A DNA stretch of 64,000 nucleotides from Eledone cirrhosa (taxonomy: Eukaryota): contig OZ024741.1 in NCBI GenBank assembly GCA_964016885.1, forward strand, positions 190,216,001 through 190,280,000, written 5' to 3'. This document shows, piece by piece, positions 42,557 through 61,184 of this stretch. A model generated the notes under the pieces. That model saw only the letters and a list, made by a program, of their open reading frames with translations. It was not told the origin of the DNA and did no database searches. Every line of letters starts with the position of its first letter. Positions within the stretch are counted from its first letter, which is position 1. Made by a program: the position numbers and the translations under genes.

Positions 42557-42933
42557 CAATGATATTAATAAATGGAAACTATATTTATAAAACCATATTT
42601 ATTTTATTATATATATTTCAAGGGACCAAAAAAAAAGTTTGGTACGCTCACATCAGATAAAATACAAAAATTTGATTTATAAATAGTGACATACCCGATA
42701 AACCAAACCTTATTGGTTCAGGTTCCATTTTGTATTTTAATTGATAAGAGCGTACCAAGTTTTTTTTTTGGTACCCTTGAAATATATATAATAAAATAAA
42801 TATGGTTTTATAAATATAGTTTCCATTTATTAATATCATTGATATTATACTCCAGGAAATACTGAAGAGTGCTTCGAATCTGTTATAATAAATAAATTTG
42901 TTGAATTACCAGCAAATTAAATATCTCTTTGCT
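42557..42933 (+). mobile_element. Short Penelope-like insertion, family A (inverted arm + sense arm + tail) in (TA)n
   Basis: 42557-~42670 is the reverse complement of ~42728-42842. Homologous to the 3' end of the 55944-61161 element, with degenerate hammerhead cores in both arms. Confidence 0.85.
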
Positions 42934-43722
42934 TATATATATATATATATATATATATGTATGTATGTATGTATGTATGTATGTATGTATGTATGTATGT
43001 ATGTATGTATGTATGTATGTATGTATGTATGTATGTAATTCTGGTAATTCTCTCGCCCACTAGATATTAACACTTCTAATATTTAACACTGCCGGCACTA
43101 GTATTGAGCACCCTCTGCATACGCTATTTGGAAAATAACTACATGTATCACCTATCCCTCCTTTTCTCTCTCTTGATATATATATATATATATATATATA
43201 TATATATATATATATATACACACCTATGCCAGAAACCATTATTATTTTACTGTCATTTTTATTGTAGACAAATGTAATTTATAACTGTTAGGGTATAAAT
43301 CCAACGATCAAGCCATACATTTCAAATTCTGGAAATAATACTTTCCTTGGTCATCACATAGATGTGTGTGTATGTAATAATAATTGTTTTTCTAAGTGTG
43401 TCTGTTTATGTGTAGATTCGTGTGTGTTTGTAATTCTATTGTCTATATATCTTTCTAAATAAACACACACAAATACATAAACACTCACACAAATATTATA
43501 TATAAATATATTTTACACAAACACACACATAATCATAACAGCCAATGTGTGTACATATAGACACACATAGGTGTAGCGAATATTAGACACTGCGACCCCT
43601 TCCTTCCTCAGTTTGTCATCACCTATTCTTCCTCAGTCATCTCTTGTGACGACGGACATAGAATATATAGTATATATAGTATATATATATATATATATAT
43701 ATATATATATATATATATATAT

Positions 43723-43910
43723 GAACGAGTAGGACCCCGACGGCTGAGCTCAAGCCGTTTCGACGGCTAATTCATCCAGAATTAGCCGTCGAAACGGCTT
43801 GAGCTCAGCCGTCGGGGTCCTACTCGTTCATATTACCCACTCTACTACCCTAAGTATTGAGTACTTTGGTGCGTTATGGTCCATCTGGTTCCTTACCACA
43901 TTTCCTTCGT
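43723..43910 (+). mobile_element. Family B hairpin-plus-tail element in (TA)n
   Basis: 43723-43773 is inverted against 43779-43829, followed by an ~80-nt unique tail and (TA)n. Four related copies occur in the window. Confidence 0.8.
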
Positions 43911-44233
43911 TATATATATATATATATATATATATATATATATATATATATATATATATAGTATATATATATCGTATATATAGTATATATAGTAAATGAG
44001 TGGAGAATGACGTTATTCTTCACACATTTTCTATTATTACTCCAAGAACCGCTTACCTAGGAACTGTCTTAAATCGGCCACCCGAGTAAGGAAACGTCTT
44101 GTTGAGTCTAACAAAGCCGAATGTTAAAACTATCCTCGATATAGAGTAATCATAACCTCTACTTGGATTACCTTAAACGATATCTCGTTAACTTATATAT
44201 ATATATATATATATATATATATATATATATATA

Positions 44234-44331
44234 ACGAAGGAAAAGTGGTAAGGAACCAGGTGGACCATAACGCACCAAAGTACTCAATACTTAGGGTAGT
44301 AGAGCTCAGCCGTCGGGGTCCTACTCGTTCC
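44234..44331 (-). mobile_element. Family B copy, opposite orientation (tail part joined to a short arm)
   Basis: Reverse complement of the family B tail (AACGAAGGAAA..AGGGTAGTAGAG) is joined through GAG to CTCAGCCGTCGGGGTCCTACTCGTTC. Confidence 0.8.
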
Positions 44332-57474: not shown

Positions 57475-59311
57475 ATGCAAAAGGATATTTATAACGATTT
57501 TATATTAAAGGAATTAAGGAAGAAATACAAAATAACAACTAATGACGACTTTGAAAAATTGAATACAGACGCTTCTTACATAATGCTGGAATTAGGCATT
57601 GAAAATAGGACACAACCCTTCATGCCAAGGAAACCAAAAATTAATATGAAGGACCACAAAAGGAACTTTGAAATTGACTTACCAGTTAGATTAATTGCAT
57701 CATCTAAATCGGACCTTGGCATACTTAGCAAGAACATTTTAGACAGAATCATACCACAAATTAAGGAATTATGTTATTTAAAATTATGGAAAGGAACTAA
57801 CGAAGTTATCGAATGGTTTAAAGACATTAAATATAATTATAATAATAAGTTTATTCAATTGGATATTGCTAATTATTACTCATCCATCACTCCTAATCTA
57901 CTTAATAAAGCACTGACATATGCATTTAAACATACAGACTTAACTAGTAATGAAATGCACATTATCCTAACGGCACGGAAAACATTAATTAAATTTAACA
58001 ACCAACTCTGGACTAGAGCAGATAGAGATAATAATTTCGATATCACTATGGGGTCATCTGATTCCGCCCAAATAACGGATCTTGTGGGGCTTTTTATAAA
58101 TAATACTCTACATAGAAAAATACCGGAGATGACCAGAGGTTTATATCACGACGATATGCTATTACTTATCGAAAATAATAACTGTGAATTAAATAGGAAA
58201 AGAAAAGAAATTATACAATTTTTTAATTAACTTAATCTTAAAGTAGAAATAGAGAATAATTATAAAATAGTTAACTTTCTAGATCTAACCTTAAACCTTA
58301 ACACATGTCTTCATTATCAATTTCACAAATTAAACGAGAACTTAAACTACGTTAATTTTAACTCCAATCACCCCAGATCCGTTAAAAATACTATAGTAAA
58401 TTCTGTAAAGCAACGCATCTCTAGAATTTCAGCTAATAAGAATATTTTTGATGATAAAGCACAGTATTACAACGAAGCGATAGGTAGAGCTGGACATAGT
58501 AATATAATTAAATACATTGATAATAATAATATAACAACTACATAATTTTAACAACTATAATAGAAAACCTTACAATAATTCGAAAAACAAAAAAAGAAAT
58601 AGAACTAGGAATATATTATGGTTCGCTCCTCCTTTCTCATTAAATATTAAAACTCCTATTGCTAAACTATTCTTTAAAGCTCTTGACAAATGCTTCCCTA
58701 GAACACATAGATATTACTCAATATTTAATAGACATACTATAAAATTAACTTATTCAACCACCAGTAATTTAGCGCAGAATATTAATAGAATTAATAATAG
58801 AAACTTAAAACCTAACCAGAATACCATTAACAACCCCAGCATTATCCAATTTAATAATACGGCTCCTAGTAACTTGAATTTTGATAAATGTAACTGTAGA
58901 AATAAATCTAACTGTCCGTTAAATAACAATTGTTTAGCTAAAAATATAGTATATAATTGTAATGTAAAAACTAATTTAAATTCATTTAATTATGTAGGTT
59001 CTACTTCCATAGACTTTAAATCTCGTTTTAATAACCATAAATGCTCTTTTACGAATATAAATAAAAAATCTTCAACTTCTCTATCTAGCTTACTATGGGA
59101 CCTAAAATTAAAGAACATTAACTATTCTTTACTTTGGAATATTATCTTCAAAGCTCCTCCATTTAATGCTTCTTCTGAAAATTGTGCTCATTGTATAGAA
59201 GAAATATTCTTTATATTAAAAAACAAAAATTCTGTGAATTTAAGGAACAATCTTTTCAGTTGCTGCAAACATAGATTAAATTCAACGTTTAAATATAAAT
59301 TTAAAATGTAA
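57475..59311 (+). pseudogene. PLE reverse transcriptase + GIY-YIG endonuclease, 5'-truncated and disrupted
   Basis: VRLI..KSDLG, FIQLDIANYYSSI, FDITMGSSDSAQITDLVG, GLYHDD. In-frame stop at 58228-58230, then VNFLDLTL and YVNFNSNHP. Frameshift near 58545, then NILWFAPPFS, IFNRHTIKLTYS, CNCRNKSNCPLNNNC, NIVY..YVGST..FKSRFNNHK, CAHC..E, CKHR. Confidence 0.92.
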
Positions 59312-60964
59312 TATATAACTCATCTTATTAAACCTATCGATAAATCATTAGATTCCTTCATACGACTGCCAAAAACTCTCTTAAATGAAGAAAAATGTTT
59401 TGCTTAAAAATTTTTCCTTGAAAATTCTTCTAGATAAACATACTGAAAGTTTTTTTAAGATGGGTATAAAAAATTAAGATAAACATACTGAAAGTTTCTA
59501 AAAAAAAAAGATTTTTTGTTAATTCCTCTGATGGATATAAAAAATTATAATTCATATTTTATACTGTATTTTTTCTATATATTCTTATATATATATTTTA
59601 AAATTATATTGCTTAAAAATTATATTGCTTAAAAATATAATTCCTTTTAAAATTATATAATTATATTTTTTAAAATTGTAATTCCTTTTAAAATTATAAT
59701 CCTTTTTAAAATTATAACTCATATTTTATTTTATATTATGTATTTTGTATTTATATATATATATGTATATATGTATATATATATGTGTGTATATGTATAT
59801 ATATGTGTGTGTATATGTGTATGTATACATGTATGTATGTATGTGTGCATATATATCGAAATGTATAATTTGAATACATTCTATGAATGAACTCATATAA
59901 AAGATTTTTTACGGTTTATGCTTTAGATATATTCTTATGAAAAACTTTAAACATTAAGACGTTATAGTAAATAAATTTATATTTTAACAGTCACAACTGT
60001 ATAACAGGTGGATTTATAAAATATATAAAATATATAAAATTATAACTTACTATAAAATAATATAAGGTTTTCTTATAATCTTAACTTTTTTTATCATCTT
60101 AACATTTAATGCTTAGAGCCTTCTGAATTACAAATAAAACAATTAATTTCCCTCACGCTGTATTGCTATTACTAAGAAGAGATTTTTCTTCGATAAAATC
60201 TGAATTTCCATGGGTTTAGAAACATTCCTATTTTAAACATATATTTTAAACAACAATTTTTTATTTTTTTAAATTATTTTTTATAATTTTTATTGTTAAT
60301 TAATTGAAAAATTAATAATTAATTGTTGATTGATGATTAATAATAAATTTATATATGGTTATGTAATAATAACATATTTTAATAATAATTTTTAATAGTA
60401 TATATATATATATATATATATATATATATATATATATATATATATATATATATGTATATATATATTCTTTTAATAATATATAGATCTCAATTTTTAATTT
60501 TTAATTTATAGATCTCAATAATTTAATTGATAAATTAAACATTTAATCAAATTTAAACATTAGATAAAATTCTCCGATTATTACTATTTATTTATTTATT
60601 TATCCACGCTTTATTTATTTACTCCGCGTAATTCATCCACTATATATTTATCTTTTCGCTTCATAAATTATGTTATTACAACACTCTCTCACTTAGGGTT
60701 TTCTCTCTTTCTCTTTCTTTTGTTTTTCTTCTTTGGGTTTGCTCTTTCTTTTTCTTTTTCTTTTTCTTTTTCTTTTTCTTTTTCTTTTTTTTTCCCTATT
60801 CCAACGGCTTAATTTAAATGTACGGGATTTAAACCTCTCCGACACTAATTTGCCTAATAGACCAATAATAAAATTAGTAACCCCACTATCCGGGAGCTTC
60901 CAACCGACATGGTCGCATTCTTTAAGGGTATGTCAATATTTGTTTATAAAATTGATCTATATTG

Positions 60965-61029
60965 TATTTTATCTGATGAAAGCGCACCATAATTTGCTCT
61001 GGTGTCCTTGAAATATGTATAATGAAATA
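60965..61029 (+). ncRNA. Type-I hammerhead ribozyme in the PLE 3' arm (mirror copy at ~55987-56051 on the minus strand)
   Basis: tattttat-CTGATGA-aagcgcacca-taatttgctc-tggtgtcctt-GAAA-tatgt-ATA|atgaaata. 8-bp stem I and short quasi-palindromic stem III; predicted cut after 61021. Confidence 0.8.
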
Positions 61030-61184
61030 AATATGGTTTTATAAATATAGTTTCCATTTGTTAATATATTGTATTTTTACTCCAAAAATTTGTTGAGTGC
61101 TTTATATCAGTTATAAAAATATTTGCTTGTTGTATCCCAACAAATTAAATATAACTTCTACATATATATATATATATATATATA

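Follow-up and report, generated by a model that had tools for sequence, protein, structure and literature searches.

Foldbacks with two fixed ends between (TA)n tracts of Eledone cirrhosa: probable double priming of truncated Penelope-like elements

The foldbacks that lie between (TA)n tracts in the genome of Eledone cirrhosa are probably 5'-truncated insertions of Penelope-like elements (PLEs), formed when both cut ends of a (TA)n target prime cDNA at two fixed sites. We analyzed a window of 64,000 nucleotides (contig OZ024741.1, positions 190,216,001 to 190,280,000, assembly GCA_964016885.1). An initial annotation of this window had described foldbacks with fixed ends, which we confirmed for every copy that it listed: an antisense arm begins at a fixed internal site (I), a sense tail stops at a fixed site (T), and both arms lie between (TA)n tracts. 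The analysis also supports the PLE origin, the (TA)n targeting, and the two fixed priming sites that it had suggested. The tail, from I to T, is 90 nt in family A, 80 nt in B, 69 nt in C, and 183 nt in E.

Copies in the window and the one-of-each rule

A long family A insertion (55944..61161, + strand) combines an inverted arm that starts at I (55944-57457) with a 5'-truncated RT-EN copy that ends at T (class I+T); by self-alignment, 55944-57457 and 61072-59569 are 94.6% identical. Its broken ORF (57442..59311, +; pieces 57442-58230, 58231-58545, and 58535-59311) covers the RT, the thumb, a CxCx5C linker, and GIY-YIG, with one stop and one frameshift. It is 85% identical to an intact 743-aa relative, and a first look at the genome gave 29,616 candidates. 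A type I hammerhead motif (60965..61029, +; descriptor match, 0/300 shuffles), whose cut is predicted to fall 51 nt upstream of site I, precedes the tail (61073..61161, +).

The other copies are shorter. A foldback of a family A subfamily (42557..42933, +) has an I arm and a T arm that are identical across the 69 nt of scored overlap; the annotated fixed-end layout stands, but its antisense arm is about 140 nt, not about 110. The A copy at 47300..47550 (+) has an I arm of about 143 nt, a 37-nt filler, and a T arm confined to the tail. At 48671..49122 (no strand assigned), an A copy with a 16-bp I arm faces its own mirror image across a TA tract. We count 48671 and 48950 as one event because they are mirror images within a 727-bp palindrome centered on that tract. 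Family B contributes foldbacks at 43723..43910 (+; I arm of 52 nt, T arm of 56 nt plus the 80-nt tail), 44234..44331 (−; T arm within the tail, junction microhomology of 3 nt), 44619..44716 (+; I arm of 58 nt, T arm of 41 nt), and 47570..47755 (+; 13-nt filler). Family C is present at 44415..44588 (−) and at 46966..47246 (+), the latter with a type I hammerhead motif (about 47086-47145), and at least 40 genomic copies of C are 100% identical over 172 nt. In the family E foldback (54995..55858, +), the T arm terminates in a fragment of a tRNA-type SINE (55437-55556). Family F has a copy at 61185..62011 (+) in which the internal site is the end of both arms, and a second copy at 52720-53400.

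Among paired insertions, 41/44 have one arm at I and one at T (p = 8e-10 vs. 50:50), including 31 of the 34 outside the window. The three that break this one-of-each rule are one T+T and two I+I pairs, and the two I+I pairs appear to be mirror images of a single event. Further exceptions are the F copy at 61185, L035 (T+T), and a hybrid, L046 (A(I)+B(I)). A (TA)n tract adjoins 108/123 of the arm ends at I or T in a sample of 1.227 Mb, compared to 5.1% of random positions; this sample is not entirely blind, as it takes in 27 kb of the window and its neighbor, one block that was extended for its TA-richness, and a further block already known for two hits. For 40 TA-abutting ends we found no partner, and some of these visibly have arms below alignable length.

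A reference-free scan of the 1.227 Mb gave a similar picture. It found 585 TA-bounded segments, and 84 of these have an inverted arm at the TA edge: 60 with a one-sided tail of 30-200 nt, 4 that are symmetric, 4 with an offset of 13-29 nt, and 16 with an offset above 200 nt (60 asymmetric vs. 4 symmetric; 25 sequence clusters). The tail pattern was present in only 2/300 length-matched control segments without TA boundaries. TATA or ATAT directly follows site I in 12/25 clusters (background 5.1%), and similar words directly follow T in families A, B, and C. A search for empty sites, meant to show if TA tracts pre-exist or grow at insertion, covered 58 insertions and yielded no site that could be used. 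The longer arm may be either of the two. Where long copies were scored (25 of 30 loci; 5 unscored), the arm with the ORF stops at I 13 times and at T 12 times, so whether the tail-less arm is "antisense" depends on the strand that is read.

Coding parents and relation to the Hydra clade

Judging from their ORFs, families A, B, C, and E each represent the 3' end of a separate PLE, with an RT plus GIY-YIG at the C-terminus; RT identity between families is 37-48%. The ORF lies upstream of family B at loci L033, L034, L036, L041, L048, L201, and L202, of family C at L194/L158 and L195/L137, and of family E at L171, L183, and L192. The intact 743-aa ORF of family A is at L208, and the ORFs of B, C, and E are in pieces or interrupted. 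The assignment to PLEs rests on motifs and mutual homology: Pfam matched neither RT nor GIY-YIG in the window's three family A fragments. The hallmarks of PLEs (a pLTR from partial tandems, an inverted 5'-truncated copy, and a tail) are all present (L202, L208, L209, and L210). Families A and C match the type I hammerhead descriptor (0/300 shuffles), and F matches a relaxed descriptor. Family B has the helices but a deviant core, CUGAGAA, in 22/30 copies; family E gave no clean descriptor match, and an Rfam scan found no hammerhead at E-values up to 5. On the foldbacks, Rfam gave sub-threshold matches to miRNA precursors.

By motifs, we consider these four families to be new members of the known Hydra clade of PLEs with a C-terminal endonuclease (Craig et al. 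2021, PMC8557442, whose file S1 includes Hydra-1_Obim from Octopus bimaculoides), to which they add a useful mechanistic constraint. The shared features are the C-terminal GIY-YIG, the CxCx5C linker, CxxC and CxH around the E and N residues, the lack of CCHH, the RW(K/R) and DKT motifs, (TA)n targets (the 108/123 ends above), a predicted hammerhead near the 3' end (in A and C), and an inverted 5'-truncated copy with a tail that is often one-sided. All four endonuclease regions have the linker and CxxC/CxH and lack CCHH; RWR and DKT were found in A (L208) and B (L202), and the N-termini of C and E had no firm assignment. The families differ from the clade in that their tails are 69-183 nt (vs. 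30-40), the 3' UTRs of B and C exceed 1 kb, the hammerhead core of B is deviant, and most copies are foldbacks of 100-400 bp. A homologue search with a fifth related PLE (L191) gave 130 relatives, none of them named among the 120 listed. In all four families the endonuclease is C-terminal to the RT; in the Naiad clade it is N-terminal. Non-LTR retrozymes are also short hammerhead-bearing derivatives of PLEs, but they are head-to-tail tandem non-autonomous units (bioRxiv 10.64898/2026.07.22.740005), whereas the foldbacks are head-to-head truncations of families with coding parents.

How the two arms arise

In tandem copies, the tail passes T and extends into the 5' UTR and the ORF, and the A tail reaches the ORF start in L208, L209, L210, and L090. 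Both priming sites are therefore probably internal, contrary to the annotated placement of one primer at the RNA 3' end. Nor do the products seem to be joined at random, as had been thought. In family B, the arms terminate 44-62 nt upstream, in many cases at an identical base, and have equal lengths in 12/22 cases vs. 5.0 expected (p = 3e-4); read depth for B drops about 20-fold about 60 nt upstream of site I. The T arm is confined to the tail while the I arm spans 30-143 nt in 4/26 short B copies and in 1/2 short A copies, so in these the I arm is not a copy of the T arm. This supports the earlier suggestion that two cDNAs are synthesized separately and then joined head to head.

The suggestion that the arms come from two RNA templates fared less evenly, as most arms share one haplotype. 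Both arms carry 31/32 rare variants in A and agree at 208/234 polymorphic sites in B (134 expected). Yet some are discordant: B arms differ at position −1 at 8/22 loci (a query-selected set), a SINE is in just one arm at L166 and L173, and three joins link different families. One of these, L058, is a hybrid of E(T) and B(I) between TA tracts, in which the E arm stops at E's usual point. Such hybrids could be deletions between neighboring insertions. We rejected two candidate E-A hybrids, at L172, whose inverted arm is the ORF of E itself, and at L084, where a SINE lies within an A ORF. At the junctions, the spacer is at most 4 nt in 9/30 and zero in 5/30. Microhomology of at least 2 nt occurs in 9/31 (null 16.5%), which is a weak and alignment-sensitive excess. 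Homo-junction counts are inflated by duplicates and yield no rate.

Palindrome centers are known for asymmetric deletion, which would account for the variable middle if a tail-end-primed cDNA folded on a palindromic word, copied itself to site I, and was captured by the other TA end, with the center deleted later. We think this snap-back unlikely, even though the concordant arms (nearly identical in A) and short spacers fit it as well as they fit double priming, and so count against the latter; equal B arms and zero-spacer junctions also favor it. Self-priming on an antisense template has been put forward for Penelope of the rotifer Adineta vaga, which shares the head-to-head inverted pLTR, the optional tail, and palindromes and microhomology at junctions (PMC3846280, Discussion); target-site duplications are visible there and are masked by (TA)n here. 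Snap-back does not account for arms of differing haplotype, for a SINE in one arm only, or for cross-family joins, and it needs an additional deletion for every I arm that outreaches its T arm. In vitro, moreover, a PLE has two initiation sites and extends both strands, according to the main text of Frangieh et al. 2024 (PMC11167929).

Two other explanations are much less probable. The initial annotation had suggested a single RT/GIY-YIG machinery that mobilizes B, C, and E as non-coding passengers, in keeping with the short, non-coding majority of copies and the drop in B read depth, and cross-family joins do hint that RNA may be used in trans. But A, B, C, and E each have an RT-EN ORF of their own joined on upstream, at several independent loci, which makes the passenger reading very improbable. 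An artefact of long-read chimeras or assembly is less credible still. Palindromes and TA tracts are liable to such errors, but arms diverge by up to about 15%, junctions carry filler, and raw Illumina reads from three other samples share the TA-abutting fixed ends and the strand-switch joints, which answers the chimera concern raised at the outset. The foldbacks are real: they recur genome-wide and in these reads. Each run (from another study) contains 2,901-3,419 reads with loose (AT)n ends at I and 8,473-11,900 at T, with strand-switch joints that recur in all three samples; this check was made at the family level for B. A read-end pile at L202:7836 was left unused, as it sits on an AATT word and is probably a RAD library cut.

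A model of double priming and its implications

For double priming, we propose that the RT-EN of each family, probably as a dimer, would nick both strands of the self-complementary (TA)n target. At site I, 20-50 nt beyond the hammerhead, one 3' end would pair with a UA stretch of 3-6 nt, and the other would pair at site T, 70-180 nt further, on uncleaved read-through RNA. Both cDNAs would usually stall early (in family B, at the top of hammerhead stem II). A head-to-head joint between their 3' ends would follow, made either where self-complementary words anneal or across a short filler, and gaps would be filled. The templates would usually come from one source locus, with two template units or two RNAs as an occasional alternative.

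In L1 twin priming, too, both target strands prime cDNA, and an inverted 5' segment results. The second L1 primer anneals at internal positions that vary, and there is no overlap between the segments, whereas here both positions are constant and the two arms are copied from one and the same sequence. The model rests on sequence comparison and on a published in vitro precedent, Poseidon PAc of Anolis carolinensis, which belongs to a different clade than the Hydra-type families (Frangieh et al. 2024, PMC11167929). In its main text, both strands are nicked and extended, two internal initiation sites flank the tail, the RNA substrate is uncleaved, and a dimer is predicted. It describes no homology between target and start site, in contrast to the 3-6 nt of TA microhomology here, and gives the two sites without linking them to the two arms of inverted insertions.

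Earlier publications already describe inverted copies, the one-sided tail (stated qualitatively and without a count in PMC8557442), Hydra PLEs that target (TA)n, and, in vitro, a pair of initiation sites on either side of the tail. For the near-strict one-of-each rule, the TATA site microhomology, and the rare cross-family joins, we found no match in the literature searched, though subscription papers or bioRxiv supplements may state the rule. Craig et al. 2021 (PMC8557442) treat the origin of the inverted repeats and the one-sided tail of PLEs as unsettled, and the contending ideas are self-priming (PMC3846280) and, in the main text of PMC11167929, two-site initiation. The one-of-each rule makes this debated mechanism testable. 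A decisive test should be easy, because the families are young and very abundant, with intact ORFs, exact start-site coordinates for each family, and a rule that can be counted. Also, foldbacks of 100-400 bp could be mistaken for MITEs or for hairpin RNAs.

More tentatively, PLE integration might use an obligatorily asymmetric RT-EN dimer, in which one protomer would always initiate at the internal site and its partner at the tail end. The protomers would each use a few TA bases of the cut target, much as telomerase does, and the two halves could load different RNAs. Such RNAs could come even from families that are about 40% identical, as in L058 (E tail arm and B internal arm), and the RT would switch onto tRNA-SINE RNA at (AUU)n. 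If true, an asymmetric dimer would explain the inverted repeats and the one-sided tail of all PLEs, and PLEs would become a source of inter-family chimeras.

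Foldback copies and their surroundings in the window

All of the foldback copies between (TA)n tracts that the initial annotation listed are present, and all of them lie in the TA-rich remainder of the window, which follows a 37-kb satellite array (1-36974; period 62 with 31-bp subunits, ~596 copies, 91% matches). The tails are 90 nt long in family A, 80 nt in B, 69 nt in C, and 183 nt in E. The copies at 48671 and 48950 are mirror images of a single insertion, and the antisense arm at 42557 measures ~140 nt, unlike the length first given. The long A copy (55944-61161) carries a broken RT-GIY-YIG ORF. 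Another family, F (52720-53400 and 61185-62397), has a hammerhead-like motif and a ~137-nt tail; one F copy, with both arms ending at the internal site (I+I), sits in the TA tract directly after the long A element.

Other repeats share this region of the 3.0-Gb animal assembly. An abundant 190-bp SINE (37722-37919, 39801-39983, 46085-46424, 49843-49958, 51517-51710, and 55437-55556) has an (ATT)n end and, by eye, A-box/B-box-like words. A 5'-truncated LINE (53646-54994; RVT_1 with an embedded PHD-like finger and an (ATG)n end) is flanked by TA tracts, yet has no foldback. Judging translations by eye, a decayed mariner-like transposase fragment and then an LTR-type integrase fragment occupy 62867-64000. 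A repeated segment (50573-50676 and 52053-52154) contains CTGATGA...GAAAC words, and hammerhead descriptors gave no match there. Large palindromes (39147-39794, 48065-48563, 48548-49274, and 50715-50776 in the window; also the C4 block near 200016383-200017090) are present; several have a TA tract at the center, and some are mirror-image doublings of whole insertions. They are possibly hairpin-primed inverted duplications at (TA)n.

Pairing of the two fixed ends

In a 1.227-Mb sample of ten blocks (including the window's last 27 kb and its neighbor, a block that was lengthened for its richness in TA, and another already known to contain two matches), 108 of 123 A, B, C, and E ends at the internal site I or the tail site T adjoin (TA)n, versus 5.1% at random positions. 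Arms were paired head to head in 44 insertions (41 I+T, 1 T+T, and 2 I+I), ten of them in the window; outside it, 31 of 34 were I+T. No partner was found for 40 more ends. When 585 TA-bounded segments were scanned without a reference, 60 had a one-sided tail and 4 were symmetric, in 25 sequence clusters (control segments, 2/300). The tail can be on the ORF-bearing or the inverted arm: among 25 scored long B copies, the ORF-bearing arm ends at T in 12 and at I in 13.

The B foldback ends and joints are not a chimera artefact. Raw Illumina RAD reads from three samples of another study, labeled with the species of the best match to the window's sequence, were mapped on one B tandem copy (~22,600-25,600 reads per run). 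Loose read ends go on as (AT)n at I (2,901-3,419 reads) and at T (8,473-11,900 reads), and the three runs share the same strand-switch joints.

Both I and T are probably internal. One primer had been placed at the RNA 3' end, but in tandem loci the tail leads on to the 5' UTR and start codon with no TA in between (A: L208, L209, L210, and L090; B: L201 and L202), so T is not a natural 3' end. The C tail also continues (L140 and L151). Short TA words directly follow both sites (TATA or ATAT after I in 12 of 25 clusters, versus 5.1% elsewhere in the same tails), which suggests that the primer pairs over a few bases.

Four families with their own RT-EN ORFs

The proposal that one RT/GIY-YIG machinery mobilizes non-coding passengers does not hold for A, B, C, or E, as each has its own upstream ORF encoding RT with a C-terminal GIY-YIG (RT-EN). 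A first look across the genome gave 29,616 candidates for the A ORF, and intact relatives of 743 aa exist. A match to B (locus L012) led to a 1.1-kb 3' UTR (3,628 candidates) with a different RT-EN ORF upstream; a third is joined to C in two independent loci (L194/L158 and L195/L137), and a fourth to E (L171, L183, and L192). The RTs of different families are 37-48% identical. CxCx5C and CxxC...E...N...CxH occur in the EN regions of all four, which lack CCHH; RWR and DKT are present in A and B. The same EN/RT motifs mark the Hydra clade (PMC8557442), and nearly all of its members, including Hydra-1_Obim, prefer (TA)n (its file S1). Going by motifs and (TA)n preference, we place the families as new, real members of this known PLE clade. 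A canonical type I hammerhead motif lies 51 nt (A) or 40 nt (C) upstream of I; the B hammerhead has a deviant core, and E gave no clean match. The microsatellite-rich 3' UTR of family C (L194, L195, and L137) contains two hammerhead-region repeats, 82% alike, with ~1.5 kb between them. Alongside a fifth Hydra-like PLE, whose frame spans 711 aa, there are further PLE ORFs in which the GIY-YIG is of the canonical cysteine-containing type (L191:7866-9998, L194:2-1528, L198, and L199), so several PLE clades coexist.

Origin of the two arms

L1 twin priming is a known related process. Here, the best reading is probably that each family's own RT-EN would prime cDNA twice, at two fixed internal sites. 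The main rival, in which the cDNA snaps back and is later trimmed by deletion, seems unlikely. Most B arms end 44-62 nt upstream of I, where hammerhead stem II has its top. Of 22 overlapping copies, 12 have arms whose lengths differ by no more than 2 nt (5.0 on average in permutations, p = 3e-4); the extents were taken from alignment to one reference, which may inflate the agreement in diverged subfamilies. This contradicts the idea that arms are joined at random. Equal lengths are compatible with snap-back, and they fit double priming just as well, because same-sense cDNAs anneal only at self-complementary words. Two cDNAs are favored by copies whose I arm is longer than the T arm (4 of 26 short B copies and 1 of 2 short A copies) and by discordant arms. 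Among 31 short junctions, 9 have microhomology of at least 2 nt, 8 are blunt or have 1 nt, and 14 have filler.

The arms are mostly of one haplotype: 31 of 32 rare A variants are common to both arms, and 208 of 234 B polymorphic sites are concordant, versus 134 expected. Against a single template speak 8 of 22 query-selected B loci whose arms differ at -1 (C/A), E copies in which one arm alone has a SINE (L166 and L173) or each arm has its own SINE variant (L178), and three cross-family joins. One (L058) unites an E tail arm, stopping at its usual point, with a B internal arm, both TA-bounded; another E+B join (L169) has lost its far end; and the third (L046) is A(I)+B(I). These joins could instead reflect deletion between neighboring insertions. 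In ~11 of 30 young E copies, the (ATT)n tract of the T arm is where the 190-bp SINE lies, and E often resumes behind it at a different point. This suggests either that the template was switched to SINE RNA or that the source was a SINE-E chimera.

Double priming, as initially proposed, is probably right, but it was largely anticipated by published work. In PMC11167929, both strands are cut and extended in vitro, and two internal start sites match the tail ends; PMC3846280 proposes self-priming. The parts consulted of a retrozyme preprint and of PMC13282606 add nothing on this point, and we found no statement of the one-of-each rule (one arm ending at I, the other at T) in the PLE literature searched. 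What makes the finding valuable is that this rule has been counted, together with the microhomology to TA and the joins between families.
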